A stretch of DNA of 6,093 nt from a virus (Duplodnaviria; Heunggongvirae; Uroviricota; Caudoviricetes). This document shows, in pieces, positions 1 through 6,093 of the stretch. Numbering within the stretch: position 1 is the first letter of the stretch; each line of letters starts with the position of its first letter. The position numbers and the translations under genes were made by a program. Where the stretch lies: the IMG/VR virus record IMGVR_UViG_2695420380_000008; one strand, written 5' to 3'. The notes below the pieces were generated by a model, which worked only from the letters and a program-made list of their open reading frames with translations, made no database searches and was not told the DNA's origin.

Positions 1-244
1 CAGTGGCAAGGTCTTTATTCAGGAGGGCTTTGCATTCTGCTTCGGTATACGTTTTACCGAGCATGATGTCTTTTCCGGTGTGTCCGTGACATACAGTCCA
101 TACACCAATGATATCTTTGTATGGTATGTAGCTGACACCTTCCAGACCATCGTTACCACCTGGGCCAGTGATTAACACAGATGCTATAGCAACAGCCCCG
201 CCACCAATAGCAACTGCAACAGCCTTGCGTAATGATGGCGACAT
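1..244 (-). CDS. SAR (signal-anchor-release) endolysin, phage lysozyme; 5' part only, gene continues beyond window start
   Basis: Minus-strand ATG at 244..242, overlapping the holin stop as TAATG. Translation [81 protein letters not shown]... runs open to position 1. Gly/Ala-rich N-terminal membrane segment typical of a SAR domain, followed by a lysozyme-like region; resembles phage 21 R / DLP12 RrrD from memory. Sits immediately 3' of a holin gene. Confidence 0.85.
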
Positions 245-459
245 TATTCACCTCTCGCAGCCTTACGCTTGTCTTCTCTTATTTTGAAATACAGATTTGT
301 CAGATAAGTCAGAAGCCCCAGAAGCAGACTTCCCAGCACACCAATCGCAGCCCACTGTGATGGACTGACCTGATCCAACCACTGCAAAAACCAGTAGCCG
401 GCACTGCCGGCGGAGGTGCCGTAGGCAATGCCTGTTGATATTTTTTCCATCTGATACAT
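244..459 (-). CDS. class II holin (pinholin, S21-like), 71/68-aa dual-start forms
   Basis: ORF of 71 codons plus TAA: [71 protein letters not shown]. Two predicted TMDs (the first Gly/Ala/Ser-rich), charged C-terminal tail, two in-frame ATGs at 459 and 450. G-rich SD-like tract (GGGGGGCGGG) just upstream. Strong resemblance to S21 / DLP12 EssD from memory. Confidence 0.85.
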
Positions 460-490
460 ATCCCGCCCCCCGACAGACCTGTGCTATCGG

Positions 491-525
491 AAAGAAAAAA
501 GGCCATCAGCAAAACTCTGATGGCC
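491..525 (-). terminator. intrinsic (rho-independent) terminator on the late-gene strand, 32 nt upstream of the holin start
   Basis: Perfect 9-bp GC-rich stem ggccatcag (501-509) / ctgatggcc (517-525) with a 7-nt loop. On the minus strand it is followed by TTTTTTCTTT (complement of 491-500). Confidence 0.6.
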
Positions 526-635
526 TGAATCACCTTTACCAATATTGTATGAAAAAACACGCACGACTAATTGACAATAATTTTCATTTCCATTAAAAAA
601 GATCGCGTAGCATTCTTAATTCATGAGGAACTTTA

Positions 636-700
636 CCCGCCAGCAATCTGAGTAGCGAAAGCTGTTCATCCCCAATGTTTTTGCTGGCGGGTCCTTTTTT
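636..700 (+). terminator. terminator-like structure on the plus strand: 11-bp inverted repeat plus T6
   Basis: cccgccagcaa (636-646) is the exact reverse complement of ttgctggcggg (681-691), followed on the plus strand by tcctttttt (T-run 695-700). The 34-nt loop is atypically long. A second GC hairpin cctccccggagggggg (711-726) followed by U-rich sequence lies just downstream. Confidence 0.3.
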
Positions 701-857
701 CTACGGTCCTCCTCCCCGGAGGGGGGCATTTCATTATTTTTCTAATCGTTACTGGTGAGAAGGCGGAAGAAAAAGCCAGTTCTTCGCCCCTAAATAACAG
801 CATGATTCCAGTCCATGCAAAATCTGATTTCCAGCTCACACATACCGAGCGCTGTAC

Positions 858-879
858 AAAAAACCGCCAGCCAAGGCAG
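858..879 (-). terminator. weak terminator-like hairpin plus U6 on the minus strand, about 260 nt 3' of tRNA-Gly; the identical sequence recurs at 1816-1837
   Basis: Minus-strand RNA cugcc-uuggcu-ggcgg-uuuuuu: 5-bp stem including one G-U pair, followed by six U (complement of A858-A863). Confidence 0.25.
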
Positions 880-1139
880 TTAAGAGTGTGTTCCCGGGGT
901 TTGCTTAGAATATTTTGTAAGTTGTCCGAAGAGATATTTACAACACCAGAATGATGAATCATCAGTCCCCTGCCAGAGGTTCACTACGTAACCTGACCGA
1001 CAATGCACCATTCTGGTGCTGAAAAAAGAGCACTGGAACTGCAACAAAACAACATCACAGAACAGGAGATGGTAAGGAGTCAGACATTCCCACACAATAT
1101 TGTGTCAGTGCAAATAACAACCTTCGTCTCAAATCTCGC

Positions 1140-1214
<75 letters not shown>

Positions 1215-1217
1215 ATA

Positions 1218-1293
<76 letters not shown>

Positions 1294-1295
1294 GC

Positions 1296-1372
1296 TGGCC
1301 CACCACCGAGGACTCGAACCTCGCACCGTCAACTTAGAAGGTTGATGCTCTATCCGGATGAGCTAGTGGTGG
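1296..1372 (-). tRNA. tRNA-Arg (anticodon UCU; reads AGA/AGG), CCA encoded
   Basis: Reverse complement reads CCACCACTAGCTCATCCGGATAGAGCATCAACCTTCTAAGTTGACGGTGCGAGGTTCGAGTCCTCGGTGGTGGGCCA. Perfect 7-bp acceptor stem CCACCAC/GTGGTGG, anticodon stem TCAAC/GTTGA, loop CTTCTAA, T-stem CGAGG/CCTCG. Confidence 0.8.
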
Positions 1373-1373
1373 T

Positions 1374-1450
1374 TGGTGGCCCTTGCTGGACTTGAACCAG
1401 CGACCTGGCGATTATGAGTCGCTCGCTCTGACCAACTGAGCTAAAGGGCC
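1374..1450 (-). tRNA. tRNA with CAU anticodon, ileX/ileZ-like (tRNA-Ile2, lysidine-dependent AUA reader) or elongator Met; CCA encoded
   Basis: Reverse complement reads GGCCCTTTAGCTCAGTTGGTCAGAGCGAGCGACTCATAATCGCCAGGTCGCTGGTTCAAGTCCAGCAAGGGCCACCA. Acceptor stem GGCCCTT/AAGGGCC, anticodon loop CTCATAA, T-arm GCTGG-TTCAAGT-CCAGC. Closer to E. coli ileX than to metT from memory; Ile2 versus Met cannot be decided from sequence alone. Confidence 0.8.
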
Positions 1451-1549
1451 GGAGGCAGAATAATAACCATATGTCATCACATCTGCAAACTCATCTGACC
1501 ACCAGCACGTTTAACGTCCTGTGCCGTTTTTCAGGTATAAAAAAACCCG

Positions 1550-1648: not shown

Positions 1649-2097
1649 GTCCTTTTTTCTACGGTCCTCCTCCCCGGAGGGGGGCATTTCATTATTTTTC
1701 TAATCGTTACTGGTGAGAAGGCGGAAGAAAAAGCCAGTTCTTCGCCCCTAAATAACAGCATGATTCCAGTCCATGCAAAATCTGATTTCCAGCTCACACA
1801 TACCGAGCGCTGTACAAAAAACCGCCAGCCAAGGCAGTTAAGAGTGTGTTCCCGGGGTTTGCTTAGAATATTTTGTAAGTTGTCCGAAGAGATATTTACA
1901 ACACCAGAATGATGAATCATCAGTCCCCTGCCAGAGGTTCACTACGTAACCTGACCGACAATGCACCATTCTGGTGCTGAAAAAAGAGCACTGGAACTGC
2001 AACAAAACAACATCACAGAACAGGAGATGGTAAGGAGTCAGACATTCCCACACAATATTGTGTCAGTGCAAATAACAACCTTCGTCTCAAATCTCGC

Positions 2098-2172
<75 letters not shown>

Positions 2173-2175
2173 ATA

Positions 2176-2251
<76 letters not shown>

Positions 2252-2253
2252 GC

Positions 2254-2330
2254 TGGCCCACCACCGAGGACTCGAACCTCGCACCGTCAACTTAGAAGGT
2301 TGATGCTCTATCCGGATGAGCTAGTGGTGG
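2254..2330 (-). tRNA. tRNA-Arg (UCU), second copy inside the duplicated block
   Basis: Same sequence as 1296-1372, offset by 958 bp. Confidence 0.75.
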
Positions 2331-2331
2331 T

Positions 2332-2408
2332 TGGTGGCCCTTGCTGGACTTGAACCAGCGACCTGGCGATTATGAGTCGCTCGCTCTGACCAACTGAGCT
2401 AAAGGGCC
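2332..2408 (-). tRNA. CAU-anticodon tRNA (Ile2/Met-type), second copy inside the duplicated block
   Basis: Same sequence as 1374-1450, offset by 958 bp. Confidence 0.75.
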
Positions 2409-2417
2409 GGAGGCAGA

Positions 2418-2446
2418 ATAATAACCATATGTCATCACATCTGCAA
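2418..2446 (-). promoter_or_regulatory. candidate sigma70 promoter for the tRNA cluster (minus strand); the same sequence occurs at 1460-1488
   Basis: Minus-strand TTGCAG (-35, complement of 2441-2446), 17-nt spacer, TATTAT (-10, complement of 2418-2423). The -10 ends 9 nt before the mature 5' end of the first tRNA. Hexamer match only. Confidence 0.3.
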
Positions 2447-2496
2447 ACTCATCTGACCACCAGCACGTTTAACGTCCTGTGCCGTTTTTCAGGTAT

Positions 2497-2520
2497 AAAA
2501 AAACCCGCATAAAGCGGGCT
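2497..2520 (-). terminator. intrinsic terminator on the minus strand directly 3' of the putative Q gene (tR'-like position)
   Basis: Minus-strand RNA gcccgc-uuuau-gcgggu followed by UUUUUUUAU: cccgc (2504-2508) / gcggg (2514-2518) stem, then the complement of the A-run 2497-2503. The first bases of the same motif precede the N run at 1539-1549. Confidence 0.55.
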
Positions 2521-2597
2521 CTTTCAAATGTCCATGTCTGCTATTCGCCTCGCGGTACAGCTTTGCGAAGCGTACAAGAATTGAAGCAGTTTTTACG

Positions 2598-3152
2598 TCA
2601 AAAAGCAATAACTTTTTTCTCTATACCAAAAGCCATAACCATTGGTTTGTACAAAATAAATTCTGCCACCTTTAGCCAATGCTCAATGCGTCTTTCACAG
2701 GTTCTTAAACTCCATTTCGGGTGTGCATCATTCAGCAGTTCAGCCATTTTGCGTTTGGTCATCCCCCGCCCCTCATACCGTTGCCGAAGGACGCTAATCA
2801 ATCCTGGATGCTCTGCCAGCACCTCACTTATGACCCGATCAATACATAACGCCTCTGCATCAGTACAATGCGCCAGCCAGCTCTTTTGCTTACCGTTAAT
2901 CATATCCCGCAAAAAAGCCTCAAGTTCAGACTTGTTCAGACCTGCTTTTTTCATCCTCCGGAGCGCCTCGTTAATTGCCGTTTTTGTCAGCTTTTTAGAG
3001 GTCAACATCAGGTTAAACATATTCCCCGTCTTACCGCCACCAATATACGACCAGCGCCCCCACATACGTAGTTTTCCCTGAATCCAGACACTTTCCAGCG
3101 TGGTGAGACGAAGGTGTTCTCCGCTTTTTCCTGTATTCGTTGGGTAAATCAT
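2598..3152 (-). CDS. putative late-gene antiterminator (Q-like), 184 aa
   Basis: Start ATG at 3152..3150 chosen over the track's upstream ATG at 3272 because it has a strong SD (AGGAGGG about 7 nt upstream) and an ATGA overlap with the preceding stop. Translation starts MIYPTNTGKSGEHLRLTTLESVWIQGKL and ends ...KRKMAELLNDAHPKWSLRTCERRIEHWLKVAEFILYKPMVMAFGIEKKVIAF. Position between the nin-like genes and the terminator/tRNA/lysis block is the canonical Q slot; family assignment is from context plus weak recollection, not a verified match. Confidence 0.5.
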   Translation of the reverse strand: MIYPTNTGKSGEHLRLTTLESVWIQGKLRMWGRWSYIGGGKTGNMFNLMLTSKKLTKTAINEALRRMKKAGLNKSELEAFLRDMINGKQKSWLAHCTDAEALCIDRVISEVLAEHPGLISVLRQRYEGRGMTKRKMAELLNDAHPKWSLRTCERRIEHWLKVAEFILYKPMVMAFGIEKKVIAF

Positions 3153-3439
3153 AAATATCCCTCCTTTCTCCAGATTTCTTGTGTGCGAAAAACACCTTCT
3201 GCATGCATCAGGCGTAATTCTTCTTTGGTGTAATCGCTGGTTTTTACCCGCCCGTCGATTAAATCGTGGCACGAGCTACAGGCAATCGCTGCCTGCATAT
3301 CGTGTGGCTTTATCGCTGTTCCGCACGTTCCCGCCAGTCGGTAATGCGCCAGCACAGACGTTTCCGGATCGTGATTGCAGTAGCCAGGAATTCTGACGGT
3401 GCACATCTGCCCCCGCGCCGCTTTACGTAAATCCACCAT
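3149..3439 (-). CDS. DUF1364 family protein (YbcO-like putative zinc-binding nuclease of lambdoid nin regions), 96 aa
   Basis: MVDLRKAARGQMCTVRIPGYCNHDPETSVLAHYRLAGTCGTAIKPHDMQAAIACSSCHDLIDGRVKTSDYTKEELRLMHAEGVFRTQEIWRKEGYL. Conserved Cys/His pattern and DLRKAARG start resemble DLP12 YbcO from memory. Start overlaps the upstream stop as TAATG; stop overlaps the Q start as ATGA. Confidence 0.6.
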   Translation of the reverse strand: MVDLRKAARGQMCTVRIPGYCNHDPETSVLAHYRLAGTCGTAIKPHDMQAAIACSSCHDLIDGRVKTSDYTKEELRLMHAEGVFRTQEIWRKEGYL

Positions 3440-4038
3440 TACGCAAACTCCAGCAGCTGCGCGGCCACATTTTCGACTTGTTCCGGAGAGGAAAATTTAC
3501 GGAACAGAATCCAGTTCCACAGCACATTCAGAACAGATTTATAAACCTGCTGAAACTCGGTTTCGTCCATATTCGCAAACGCGATAGATTTCGCCCGACA
3601 CCCACGGCTACCGTCCGGATAAAAATGCTCGGTGTAAAATCCGGCCTGAATGGCTACCCACTCGCGGAAAGCCTCAAACGACTTTAGCAATGCCGTATCA
3701 CTGGTTCTGCGTGTCGCAACTGTATTCAGATATTGCTCTGCGGCTTCGCTCAGAGCTGGCGTATGTTCCCGGCCTACTGATTCACACAGGTAATCAACGA
3801 AACCGGACACCAGTTTTCGTTCGCGAGGCGTGATCGCCCCACCGACCGGAGTCCAGTAATCGAATCCCAGTTGCAGGAGTTTGAAAAAACGCTTGTGGAA
3901 TGCGTAGTTACGCACACGCTTAAAGTCTGCGTGTATCCACTCACCTGTTTTGATTTGATGCAGAAAATCGCAACTCTCCGGCGTCGCCGGGAGAAGTAAT
4001 CCGGAAGAGGTTTGTTTGACCAGTTGTATATGTGCCAT
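3439..4038 (-). CDS. DUF1367-like lambdoid prophage nin-region protein, 199 aa
   Basis: Start at ATG 4038..4036 (GGAGA SD about 6 nt upstream: ccggagaaagccgATG) preferred over the track's ATG at 4080. MAHIQLVKQTSSGLLLPATPESCDFLHQIKTGEWIHADFKRVRNYAFHKRFFKLLQLGFDYWTPVGG...; about 200 aa and adjacent to DUF1364, as is usual for this family from memory. Confidence 0.5.
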   Translation of the reverse strand: MAHIQLVKQTSSGLLLPATPESCDFLHQIKTGEWIHADFKRVRNYAFHKRFFKLLQLGFDYWTPVGGAITPRERKLVSGFVDYLCESVGREHTPALSEAAEQYLNTVATRRTSDTALLKSFEAFREWVAIQAGFYTEHFYPDGSRGCRAKSIAFANMDETEFQQVYKSVLNVLWNWILFRKFSSPEQVENVAAQLLEFA

Positions 4039-4076
4039 CGGCTTTCTCCGGTGGCACGGTGTTACACAGCAGGAGT

Positions 4077-4364
4077 TCAATCCTGCTCAAGATTGTAGAT
4101 GAGTTTATTCTTCAGCAAAAGCAGAAAACCAGCCTTAAAACCAATCTCTTTCAAAACCCGTAATGATGTGACAAATTCGTCCTCACGCAAAATAAAACCG
4201 TCCGTCAGAAGTCCATTACAAAAATAAAATAACACAGCACCGCTCTTCCTTTGTTGAGATTGCAAACATCTAATGCGGCAATGGCTGACAATCGCTCCAT
4301 TCTCAACGCGCACAGCATAGAGGCCATTTTCACTAAAAATTTCACGCAATTCTTCGATTTTCAT
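4077..4364 (-). CDS. hypothetical small prophage protein, 95 aa
   Basis: ORF with GGAAGGA SD-like sequence about 9 nt upstream of ATG 4364: MKIEELREIFSENGLYAVRVENGAIVSHCRIRCLQ... Occupies the slot between the hok terminator and the DUF1367 gene. No family recognised. Confidence 0.45.
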   Translation of the reverse strand: MKIEELREIFSENGLYAVRVENGAIVSHCRIRCLQSQQRKSGAVLFYFCNGLLTDGFILREDEFVTSLRVLKEIGFKAGFLLLLKNKLIYNLEQD

Positions 4365-4445
4365 CTTCAGAATCCTTCCAGATAAATAGCTCTCCCCTGT
4401 TCGGGGTCCATCCCTCTTCTCCCTGCGCGCTACTTAAGTGAGTCG

Positions 4446-4473
4446 ATTCTATCTGCGAAGGTGCGCGAATCAA
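4446..4473 (-). promoter_or_regulatory. candidate sigma70 promoter for the small ORF / DUF1367 / DUF1364 / Q operon
   Basis: Minus-strand TTGATT (-35, complement of 4468-4473), 16-nt spacer, TAGAAT (-10, complement of 4446-4451), about 80 nt upstream of ATG 4364 and just 3' of the hok terminator. Hexamer match only. Confidence 0.3.
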
Positions 4474-4493
4474 ATTCACCGGAAATAAACAAC

Positions 4494-4536
4494 AAAAAAC
4501 CCGCCGAAACGCTGAGAGATCACAGCGATGGGCGGG
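4494..4536 (-). terminator. intrinsic terminator at the 3' end of the hok transcript
   Basis: Minus-strand RNA CCCGCC-cau-CGCUG-ugaucucu-CAGCG-uuuc-GGCGGG followed by UUUUUU: outer stem 4500-4505/4531-4536, inner stem 4510-4514/4523-4527, U-run from the complement of A4494-A4499. Confidence 0.6.
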
Positions 4537-4541
4537 TTAAG

Positions 4542-4557
4542 TGCGGGTGCGTTGAGG
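4542..4557 (-). promoter_or_regulatory. candidate fbi-like 3' element of hok mRNA, complementary to the 5' end of the transcript
   Basis: Plus-strand tgcgggtgcgttgagg (4542-4557) is the inverted repeat of cctcaagcacccgca (4928-4942), 15 of 16 positions with a one-nucleotide bulge. Both lie inside the predicted hok transcript. Confidence 0.5.
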
Positions 4558-4613
4558 ATGCCTGACACATCAGAGGTGGGCGGGGATGGGATCAGCTCCC
4601 CGCCCGGTCACTC

Positions 4614-4769
4614 TTACTTCCTGGATTCGTAGTCTACGAAGACAGCGACCTCCGTCTGGCCGGTTCGGATTCGTACCTCACAGAGGTCTTTCCTCGTTAC
4701 CAGTGCCGTCACTATGACGGTTAAACAGATGACGATCAGGGCGATTAACATCGCCTTTTGCTGCTTCAT
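4614..4769 (-). CDS. hok: Hok/Gef family type I toxin (small membrane toxin), 51 aa
   Basis: ATG 4769..4767 with AAGGAG SD 9 nt upstream; MKQQKAMLIALIVICLTVIVTALVTRKDLCEVRIRTGQTEVAVFVDYESRK. Hydrophobic TMD followed by the conserved LVTRKDLCEV.IRTGQTEVAVF core of HokC/HokD-type toxins. Confidence 0.85.
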   Translation of the reverse strand: MKQQKAMLIALIVICLTVIVTALVTRKDLCEVRIRTGQTEVAVFVDYESRK

Positions 4770-4826
4770 AGCCTGCTTCTCCTTGCCTTTCGGCATGTAA
4801 GAGGCTAACCTACATGTGCAAAGCAT
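4614..4826 (-). CDS. mok: mok-like reading frame: in-frame N-terminal extension of hok, 70 aa
   Basis: Upstream in-frame ATG at 4826 gives MLCTCRLASYMPKGKEKQA-MKQQK..., the same pattern as chromosomal mokC/hokC (ML.TCR...K.KEK.AMKQ.K) as I recall it. Confidence 0.5.
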   Translation of the reverse strand: MLCTCRLASYMPKGKEKQAMKQQKAMLIALIVICLTVIVTALVTRKDLCEVRIRTGQTEVAVFVDYESRK

Positions 4827-4888
4827 GAAATTGGCCTCAGATTAATGTTAAGCGTCTTGCCGGACGCGTAATGTTAACTGGGGCTTTT
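4818..4888 (+). ncRNA. sok: candidate Sok-like antisense RNA covering the mok start codon and leader
   Basis: Plus-strand TTGCCT (4783-4788), 17-nt spacer, TAACCT (4806-4811), inside the mok 5' coding region in antisense. Downstream, gcctcag (4834-4840) pairs with ctggggc (4878-4884) enclosing an inner hairpin gcgtc/gacgc (4852-4856/4863-4867), followed by TTTT (4885-4888). Boundaries are approximate. Confidence 0.3.
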
Positions 4889-4927
4889 CTCTATCTGCCT
4901 TTTGGTGTTCATGCCTGAAGCAGATAG

Positions 4928-4942
4928 CCTCAAGCACCCGCA
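4928..4942 (-). promoter_or_regulatory. candidate tac-like 5' element of hok mRNA, pairing partner of 4542-4557
   Basis: See 4542-4557. Lies immediately downstream of the predicted hok transcription start. Confidence 0.5.
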
Positions 4943-4945
4943 GTC

Positions 4946-4975
4946 ATTCTACTTACCTCGCCAATATGAAATCAA
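4946..4975 (-). promoter_or_regulatory. candidate sigma70 promoter of the hok/mok transcript
   Basis: Minus-strand TTGATT (-35, complement of 4970-4975), 18-nt spacer, TAGAAT (-10, complement of 4946-4951). Predicted +1 near 4939, at the start of the tac-like element and about 110 nt upstream of the mok ATG. Confidence 0.4.
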
Positions 4976-4996
4976 TCAGAAAGGTGCCCCATAAAA

Positions 4997-5683
4997 TCAC
5001 TCCTTCTCTTCTTTACCGTAGTGGAGTTGACCAATTTTGATAAGAGGGCGTCCCTGAGATTTGCGGTGTAGATTGGTATCGCGCAGAGAATACACACAGC
5101 CACAATATTCCTGCTGATAGAATTTTTCGCGCTTGCTGATTTCAATCATACGGGACGAGCCGCCCTGCTTGCGCCAGTTATAATCCCAGTACACCATGCC
5201 CGGATAATGCGCGACGGCTCGCCGCCCACAGTCGTTAACCTGCTGCATATTTTTCCAGCGTGAAATGCCCAGTGAACTGCTGATCACACTGAAACCATTT
5301 TCAGCGGCGTACAGCGCTGTCCGCTCAAAACGCATGTCAAAACACATGGTGCAACGGATCCCTCGTTCGGGCTCCCATTCCATTCCTTTGGCTCGTTCAA
5401 ACCAGTTGTCTGTGTCGTAATCAGCATCAATAAACGGCACGCCGTGTTGTTCAGCAAAGCGAATATTCTCATCCTTACGAATTAAATACTCTTTCTGAGG
5501 ATGAATGTTCGGGTTGTAGAAAAAGATGGTGTAGTCGATTCCCGAGGCCTGAAGCGCCTCCATCACCTCACCGGAACATGGAGCACAGCAAGAGTGCAGT
5601 AGTAGTTTGTTTGCCCCGTTTGGGAGCTCCAATTTGGGCCGTTTGAAATCAGCAACTGTCATAAATATGTTTATTGGGGTCAT
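4997..5683 (-). CDS. queH: QueH-like epoxyqueuosine reductase (DUF208 family), 228 aa; start uncertain (ATG 5683 or 5662)
   Basis: [72 protein letters not shown]...[36 protein letters not shown]...[29 protein letters not shown] and YCGCVYS are the hallmark motifs of DUF208/QueH as I recall them. Neither candidate start has a clear SD. Confidence 0.7.
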
Positions 5684-5830
5684 AAAAATATCAAAGAGTG
5701 TAGCATTAGAACGGGGCTATCGGAAACAGATGTGTGACTGCTCCCCGCCCTTTCGGGTGGTCTCCTGATGATTTGAGGGTGCAGAAATCCCTCCGGTTAA
5801 GGATTAAATTTTTAACAGTGCTAAATTTAA

Positions 5831-6093
5831 TTATTCAGTTCTGGATTTTGTCGCCCTGCGTATCCGCGCTTTCGCGTTACGCTCAATCTGTATCAGCTTT
5901 TCTATATTTCTCCGCCTTTCCTGTTCCTCCTGGCGCAATAGCCTTACATCATCTGCCAGTCTGGTTTCTCTTTTTGCCACAGAGAGCATCCAGTCAAACG
6001 GCTCCACAACCGCACCGCAGATTTTACAGCGGACCTGACGCTCTTTTTCGTCAACCCGGACAGAGGCGTGATGGCAATATGGTCTTTCCGATG
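5831..6093 (-). CDS. 3' end of a gene of unknown function (C-terminal 86 codons plus TAA); N-terminus lies beyond the window end
   Basis: Minus-strand frame open from the window edge to TAA at 5833..5831: ...SERPYCHHASVRVDEKERQVRCKICGAVVEPFDWMLSVAKRETRLADDVRLLRQEEQERRRNIEKLIQIERNAKARIRRATKSRTE. Contains a CxxC and a basic, coiled-coil-like tail; no family recognised. Confidence 0.4.
   Translation of the reverse strand, partial: SERPYCHHASVRVDEKERQVRCKICGAVVEPFDWMLSVAKRETRLADDVRLLRQEEQERRRNIEKLIQIERNAKARIRRATKSRTE

Follow-up and report, generated by a model that had tools for sequence, protein, structure and literature searches.

Why would a lambdoid prophage carry a gene for the last step of queuosine synthesis into a host that already performs this step? 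E. coli makes epoxyqueuosine (oQ)-tRNA by means of tgt and queA, in a pathway described in PMC9508795. The step that then follows is catalyzed by QueG and is B12-dependent in E. coli (PMC4646009, citing Frey 1988), and QueH is a cobamide-independent alternative to QueG (PMC6461909). The stretch of DNA analyzed here, 6,093 nucleotides long and called the window below, encodes a protein of the QueH type, for which the original prediction had offered three functions: completion of queuosine in the lysogen without B12, service to the phage's own translation, and phage 7-deazaguanine metabolism. Of these, the first would fit best with what the sequences hold. We consider it quite probable (about 0.8) that the gene is a genuine B12-independent queH, captured from Enterobacterales and kept as prophage cargo, and that its product acts as an oQ reductase on host tRNA. 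This reading is carried by the family of the protein, its intact metal ligands, its fold match, purifying selection, its place as prophage cargo and its redundancy with queG; from these we infer catalytic activity and any fitness benefit.

An uninterrupted ORF of 228 codons runs through positions 4997-5683 of the minus strand, and the plus-strand translation of the same interval is riddled with stops. The ORF product matches the QueH profile of Pfam (PF02677) with 220.6 bits (E=1.9e-65), residues 27-201 pairing with positions 1-174 of the 175 in the profile. Because the curated cut-off of this profile is 23.5 bits, the match lies far beyond chance. PF02677 was the only Pfam family matched, and the ferredoxin and cobalamin-binding domains of the QueG type were absent in the same search. 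An NCBIfam search of the protein returned no model at E<=0.01; PGAP nonetheless annotates an identical CDS of 666 nt as 'epoxyqueuosine reductase QueH' (WP_012421537.1), and the exact 221-aa protein is found in RefSeq on at least 1,000 contigs as 'MULTISPECIES: epoxyqueuosine reductase QueH [Enterobacteriaceae]'. The window protein shares its full-length domain with the QueH family (DUF208, PF02677, COG1636), and the membership claimed in the original prediction was borne out by the profile search, the Cys ligands and the fold. The gene is already known, since RefSeq names the exact protein QueH and the family has solved structures; enzyme family, structure and exact sequence are all catalogued. 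The reaction and the tRNA substrates of QueG would also be those of the window protein, whereas the fold and cofactor of QueG are unrelated to those of QueH, and QueG is encoded on the chromosome, universally in E. coli. The coding sequence and the codons of its metal-ligand motifs are as follows.

4997-5662, minus strand: queH CDS of 221 aa, with Met8 as its probable start and its stop codon at 4997-4999; ORF, Pfam, PGAP and dN/dS.
5576-5590, minus strand: codons of C32-C33-A-P-C36 (CCAPC), first metal-ligand motif; alignment to 7LC5 and family columns.
5342-5353, minus strand: codons of C111-x-x-C114 (within RCTMC), second ligand motif; family columns.
5096-5104, minus strand: codons of C194-G-C196 (within YCGCVYS), third ligand motif; family columns.

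Reading of the translation and its codons confirmed the three Cys motifs quoted earlier, namely HSCCAPCS (residues 30-37), RCTMC (residues 110-114) and YCGCVYS (residues 193-199). All seven conserved ligand positions are Cys in the window protein (C32, C33, C36, C111, C114, C194 and C196), so that the loss of Cys ligands, which would have counted against QueH, was not seen in the alignment. Conservation was counted in the family at large, for which 1.84 billion representatives were searched exhaustively and 4,755 members found at E<=0.001; in the representatives that were aligned, conservation reaches 96% or more in every ligand column. In the first motif C32 is kept in 118/119 and C33 in 119/119, and at position 36 Cys accounts for 116/120 and Asp for 4/120; in the second motif the counts are 139/143 for C111 and 135/140 for C114; in the third they are 86/88 for C194, 87/87 for G195 and 87/87 for C196. 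The Asp at position 36 is that of the solved enzyme: in the alignment to Thermotoga maritima QueH (7LC5), C32 falls on C9 and C36 on D13. We considered whether CCAPC, as against the CCAPD of T. maritima, marks a variant active site, and ruled this out. Because Cys36 is the family majority and the other six columns are 96-100% conserved, the active site of the window protein is canonical.

Structural comparison points the same way. A sequence search of the PDB found T. maritima QueH (7LC5) with E=5e-22 over residues 27-203 at about 30% identity. The AF2 model of the window protein has moderate confidence (pLDDT 68.7, pTM 0.70), and pLDDT drops below 50 over residues 167-192, the stretch with the C-terminal CGC motif. 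Its five best fold matches in the PDB are all five T. maritima QueH entries, with target-normalized TM-scores of 0.73-0.76 and a probability of 1.00, among them the complex with queuosine and two mutants, C9S and D13N. The predicted fold of the window protein therefore matches that of solved QueH. The protein shares this predicted fold and the metal-ligand positions with the solved structures (7LC5, 7LC7 and 9DEU), and differs from them in having Cys where the T. maritima enzyme has Asp13 and, as read from the sequence, in an apparent C-terminal extension, short and with many charged residues. The two mutants mark two of the ligand positions, and the conserved residues of QueH reportedly hold a [4Fe-4S] cluster and an adjacent iron, a finding attributed to Li et al. 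2021. The titles of the mutant entries are consistent with that role, and in the window protein the seven cysteines would be the ligands of such a cluster and iron.

The ORF has been described as 228 aa long. It is intact and lies on the minus strand, but its start should probably be moved to Met8 (ATG at 5660-5662), which gives a protein of 221 aa.

5663-5683, minus strand: upstream in-frame ATG (Met1, 5681-5683) and six further codons, probably leader; allele variation, and orthologs without a counterpart.

Three observations make Met8 the likely start. The chromosomal orthologs all begin about 22 residues ahead of HSCCAPC, that is, at Met8; PGAP calls the same start; and in a comparison of four prophage alleles codons 2-7 carry several amino-acid changes and evolve as non-coding DNA would, with dN/dS of about 0.8-1.1, a value from six codons and only two pairs with defined dS, whereas codons 9-40 have 0-0.20. 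Inspection of the upstream sequence found no Shine-Dalgarno sequence ahead of either Met8 or Met1. A third candidate, Met41, is hinted at by GGTGAGGTG just upstream of it and by PHROG 3217, a family of 'unknown function' (188 positions) that matches only residues 41-228 of QueH (window 4997-5563). This start was ruled out, since codons 9-40 are under purifying selection; it is also contradicted by the CCAPC motif, which is present in all orthologs. Judged from these alignments, the Met41 form results from truncation in gene calling, which drops a metal-binding motif, and PHROG 3217 lacks CCAPC because it was built on gene calls truncated at this codon.

The setting of the gene in a lambdoid prophage was confirmed by a near-identical complete element. 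The window is 99.7-99.9% identical to the complete prophage of FDAARGOS_944, which is inserted between ybhA and pgl. Its left part comprises int, xis, recE/gam, cI/cro, YdaT, replication genes, a DUF977 gene, a hypothetical gene and queH; after queH come hokD, a hypothetical gene, DUF1367 (NinB-like), DUF1364, DUF1133 (Q-like) and four tRNAs; and the prophage ends with holin, lysozyme, Rz, terminase, head and tail genes and ipaHb. Thus int/xis, cI/cro and the replication, Q-like, lysis and head genes surround queH. In the window the nin-region genes lie on the minus strand at 2598-3272 (DUF1133), 3149-3439 (YbcO/DUF1364, a putative nuclease) and 3439-4080 (DUF1367). The DUF1133 protein has weak similarity to Q antiterminators (28.4 bits versus a cut-off of 26 bits), and the GTG start given to its gene by the ORF lister makes it 40 codons longer than the PGAP call; the DUF1367 protein bears the PHROGs label NinB/Orf recombination mediator. 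At the far end of the matching prophage, ipaHb, a gene for a type III secretion effector, lies beside a DNA-invertase remnant (L012 16761-18587; NZ_CP065613 4326760-4328586), which suggests a Shigella-like host in FDAARGOS_944, a strain labelled E. coli, and a phage with two or more cargo genes.

Comparison of prophages shows how queH is placed within this order of genes.

4991-5733, minus strand: queH cargo cassette of about 740 bp in a variable lambdoid slot; breakpoints among prophages.
5663-5733, minus strand: 71-nt leader that always accompanies queH, with 5733 as the 5' edge of the cassette; homology start and leader alignment.
4614-4939, minus strand: hok/sok type I toxin-antitoxin locus directly downstream of queH; Pfam HOK_GEF and Rfam sok.

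The cassette consists of the ORF and its 71-nt leader and is carried by lambdoid prophages of E. coli and Shigella, and the slot lies between the replication genes and the hok/sok-nin-Q region. Upstream homology starts at window position 5733 in L002, L008, L010 and nearly all queH carriers, and prophages with hokD only align from about 4994-4955 downstream. In L009 both flanks are kept (window 6093-5745 and 4958-4560) and the slot holds a DUF7167 gene and two hypothetical genes (L009 2857-3720). The breakpoints of the slot are therefore at 5733-5745 and at about 4958-4994. The hok/sok locus is complete (Hok/Mok ORF, HOK_GEF match with E=9.8e-23; sok RNA at 4764-4939 with 117 bits); it is not part of the queH enzyme, and no terminator separates it from queH. 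The flank that holds it is common to 79 of the 80 IMG/VR loci, and the upstream flank differs in 63 of them. The cassette also occurs without a directly adjacent hok/sok: queH is followed by a hypothetical gene and a KwaB-like (Kiwa) gene in L008 (4446-6085), and by a Dcm methyltransferase and an NgoMIV-type restriction enzyme in L010 (4422-6432). The slot is a cargo hot-spot of lambdoid prophages, and the presence or absence of queH at a fixed site between conserved flanks makes it accessory cargo, as had been proposed. It shares presence/absence polymorphism, sharp breakpoints and alternative cargos with the morons and other accessory genes that lambdoid phages carry between replication genes and nin/Q. 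Classic morons, however, bring their own promoter and terminator, whereas the queH cassette has only a candidate extended -10 element and no terminator.

The company of a KwaB-like gene or a type II restriction-modification pair in other prophages raises the idea that queH serves 7-deazaguanine DNA modification or counter-defence, or that it has taken on a new role, in defence or exclusion, at a site where prophages gather defence genes. Some precedent exists in QueC-family proteins, which have been co-opted in defence systems (PMC13639016). Phage 7-deazaguanine sets (DpdA, FolE, QueC/D/E) resemble queH in borrowing genes of the queuosine pathway, but they act on DNA with preQ0-type bases, whereas the prophage queH stands alone and belongs to a late, tRNA-specific step. 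Epoxy-deazaguanine is not known to occur in DNA. In the survey of the neighborhood, no DpdA/TGT, FolE, QueC/D/E or other queuosine gene was annotated in the FDAARGOS_944 prophage from int to ipaHb. The absence of partner genes contradicts a role in DNA modification, and with no other queuosine or 7-deazaguanine gene annotated across the prophage the suggested phage 7-deazaguanine metabolism finds no support. PADLOC defence profiles likewise gave no match to the window protein at E<=0.01. Neofunctionalization is unlikely given 79-86% identity to chromosomally annotated QueH and the conservation of every ligand, and we regard the whole idea of a DNA-modifying or defensive queH as barely plausible. 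These phage sets were reported to lack QueA, QueG and QueH in a 2019 survey, which found no homologs of the three in the viruses analyzed (Hutinet et al. 2019).

Where did the gene come from? The closest homologs outside the cluster of E. coli, Shigella, Enterobacter and Klebsiella are annotated QueH proteins with the 79-86% identity just mentioned, from Erwinia, Providencia, Proteus, Photorhabdus, Pantoea, Ewingella, Gibbsiella, Dickeya and others. The two queH neighborhoods inspected, those of Providencia and Ewingella, consist of housekeeping genes, and phage genes are absent from them. At the DNA level these orthologs are 76-77% similar to the window, in the coding region only. Similarity confined to the coding region together with housekeeping neighborhoods is the signature of a captured housekeeping gene rather than of a divergent phage paralog, and an Enterobacterales chromosome is the most likely source of the prophage queH.

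In present-day E. coli hosts the gene is always redundant. At a threshold of at least 80% coverage of the CDS, queH is present in 985 of 5,426 complete E. coli genomes (18%), and host queG, a separate chromosomal gene, in all 5,426. Since queG is universal, prophage queH is always a second reductase, accessory to the host QueG as had been supposed. One nonsense allele of queG has been reported from a gut isolate (PMC8477403). K-12 is not among the queH matches listed. Carriers include O104:H4, some O157:H7 strains, APEC and Shigella-type strains.

Such redundancy invites the explanation that queH is a captured fragment without function, kept by linkage to hok/sok and the nin region. Its presence in only 18% of genomes and its travelling with the addictive hok/sok in 79/80 loci would agree with a neutral passenger, as would full redundancy with queG. 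Against this stands the record of selection. Over codons 41-228 the four prophage alleles have dN/dS of 0.013-0.055, and the ORF is intact in 80/80 IMG/VR prophage contigs, although these alleles and loci are closely related and do not count as independent samples. Divergence among the alleles is overwhelmingly synonymous (dN/dS 0.01-0.06), every ligand residue is kept, and in L008 and L010 the cassette persists beside other neighbors. A functionless passenger is therefore very improbable. The prophage alleles are under strong purifying selection, from which it can be argued that the QueH protein is used in its present hosts.

Used for what? The window protein would reduce the epoxide of oQ34 to give Q34 on host tRNA-Asp, -Asn, -His and -Tyr. 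E. coli cannot synthesize B12 de novo. Since QueG needs B12 and the cell does not make it, a carrier would gain the ability to complete queuosine when B12 is scarce. No phenotypic difference in E. coli between oQ- and Q-tRNA is known, so that any selective benefit is hypothetical. Present knowledge of oQ accumulation derives from K-12, which relies on QueG alone. If the prophage enzyme is active, about 18% of sequenced E. coli would finish queuosine without depending on B12, and queH would clearly exemplify the transfer by a phage of a queuosine gene for a late, tRNA-specific step, a kind of gene that the 2019 survey of viral genomes reported as absent. Such an advance would lie in ecology and physiology, and no new mechanism would be involved.

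The expression of queH bears on whether the lysogen or the phage would profit. The gene is co-oriented with genes of the early-right operon on both sides. A scan for sigma-70 consensus promoters, which needs a -35 hexamer, found none directly upstream of queH, and a scan for intrinsic terminators found none flanking it. The leader holds one candidate element.

5697-5705, minus strand: TGCTACACT, candidate extended -10 promoter element; leader conservation, by inference.

TGCTACACT occurs in 80/80 IMG/VR leaders, although adjacent leader positions vary; its offset is as expected in 79 and differs by one base in 1. In an alignment of four alleles it is present in three, and L008 has TGCCACACT. 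This conservation is suggestive only of an extended -10 promoter. Transcription may come from the early-right phage operon, from the gene's own possible promoter, or from both, and expression in a repressed lysogen is putative because no consensus promoter or terminator flanks the gene.

Two further proposals depend on which of these sources matters. In the first, queH is a lysogenic-conversion gene that uses its own extended -10 promoter and frees queuosine completion from B12 in about one-sixth of E. coli and Shigella; we hold this to be possible but doubtful. Were it true, carriers in niches poor in B12 would depart from non-carriers in the oQ/Q state of their tRNA and in the decoding of NAU and NAC codons, and the traits linked to this state would be biofilm formation, virulence, and responses to metal and oxidative stress. 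In the second, the active enzyme serves the phage: expressed together with delayed-early genes once the prophage is induced or a cell infected, it would convert host tRNA from oQ to Q and so favor translation of phage or infection-relevant mRNA. The co-orientation of queH with the early-right genes speaks for this, as neither a terminator nor a consensus promoter separates them. So does a 2026 preprint in which infection of Shewanella by a phage induces queG and shifts oQ to Q, a step proposed there to be regulatory. By analogy, the phage might on induction use queH to force such an infection-responsive switch. The response in Shewanella, however, is a host response tied to resistance and not a benefit to the phage. 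Moreover, the NAU fraction is 0.50 in late and 0.53 in early prophage genes versus 0.53 in the host, the host value coming from a small sample of 8 genes. NAU enrichment as a rationale for a role in phage translation was accordingly set aside, and codon usage lends no support to the earlier suggestion of a service to phage translation. Nor are the tRNAs encoded by the phage substrates for queuosine: the earlier statement to that effect holds, for their anticodons are CAT, TCT, TGT and TCC, none of them GUN. Finally, only limited turnover of tRNA is to be expected in the course of one lytic cycle. Service to the phage is therefore unlikely, and completion of queuosine on host tRNA in the carrier cell remains the preferred reading.

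Carriage of queH by phages seems to have gone unremarked so far. No discussion of its prophage carriage was found in the searchable literature, and a mention in Zallot 2017 is possible. IMG/VR holds 191 viral contigs with a relative. Among 50,697 phage records, the isolated temperate phage HannyBb (PP925841) is the only named phage with a complete genome that carries this queH allele, annotated there as a hypothetical protein. The labels of HannyBb and PHROG 3217 constitute an annotation gap that is easily fixed. Several other records with QueH hits are filed as phage, namely CAKLQH020000001 and CAKLQF020000001 (328-378 kb), OR844989, OR848462, OR846867 and OR850117, assigned to Acinetobacter phage MD-2021a, Staphylococcus and Listeria; their sizes or identities suggest bacterial chromosomal DNA filed as phage, and they are not countable as phage-borne QueH. 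In addition, queH is found on 20 plasmids, mainly of Klebsiella, of which 15 are predicted to be conjugative, so the gene also moves on non-phage elements. The one plasmid examined, the conjugative IncFIB/IncFII plasmid NZ_CP071821 of Klebsiella pneumoniae, carries an 85.6%-identical queH (L011 5992-6660) that adjoins an IS3 transposase and TonB-family fragments.

The tRNA genes of the window deserve a separate comment. The array of four lies between the Q-like antiterminator gene and the holin gene. In Stx phages, this same position is taken by tRNAs and the stx genes. The array is present twice in the window, at 1140-1450 and 2098-2408, 958 bp apart, because a duplicated block (within 666-2507) is joined through runs of N at 1550-1580 and 1618-1648, each of 31 N, which flank an island of 37 nt. 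Window positions 1-1549 correspond to L001 8061-9608 and positions 1649-6093 to L001 8751-13194, which are overlapping pieces of one locus, and the near-identical genome of FDAARGOS_944 has a single array. The duplicated block probably stems from an artefact of scaffolding, masking or joining, or else from a duplication specific to the source. In both copies the tRNA with the CAT anticodon (1374-1450 and 2332-2408, minus strand) is called tRNA-Met by ARAGORN and tRNA-Ile, of the lysidine-type Ile2 kind, by PGAP.
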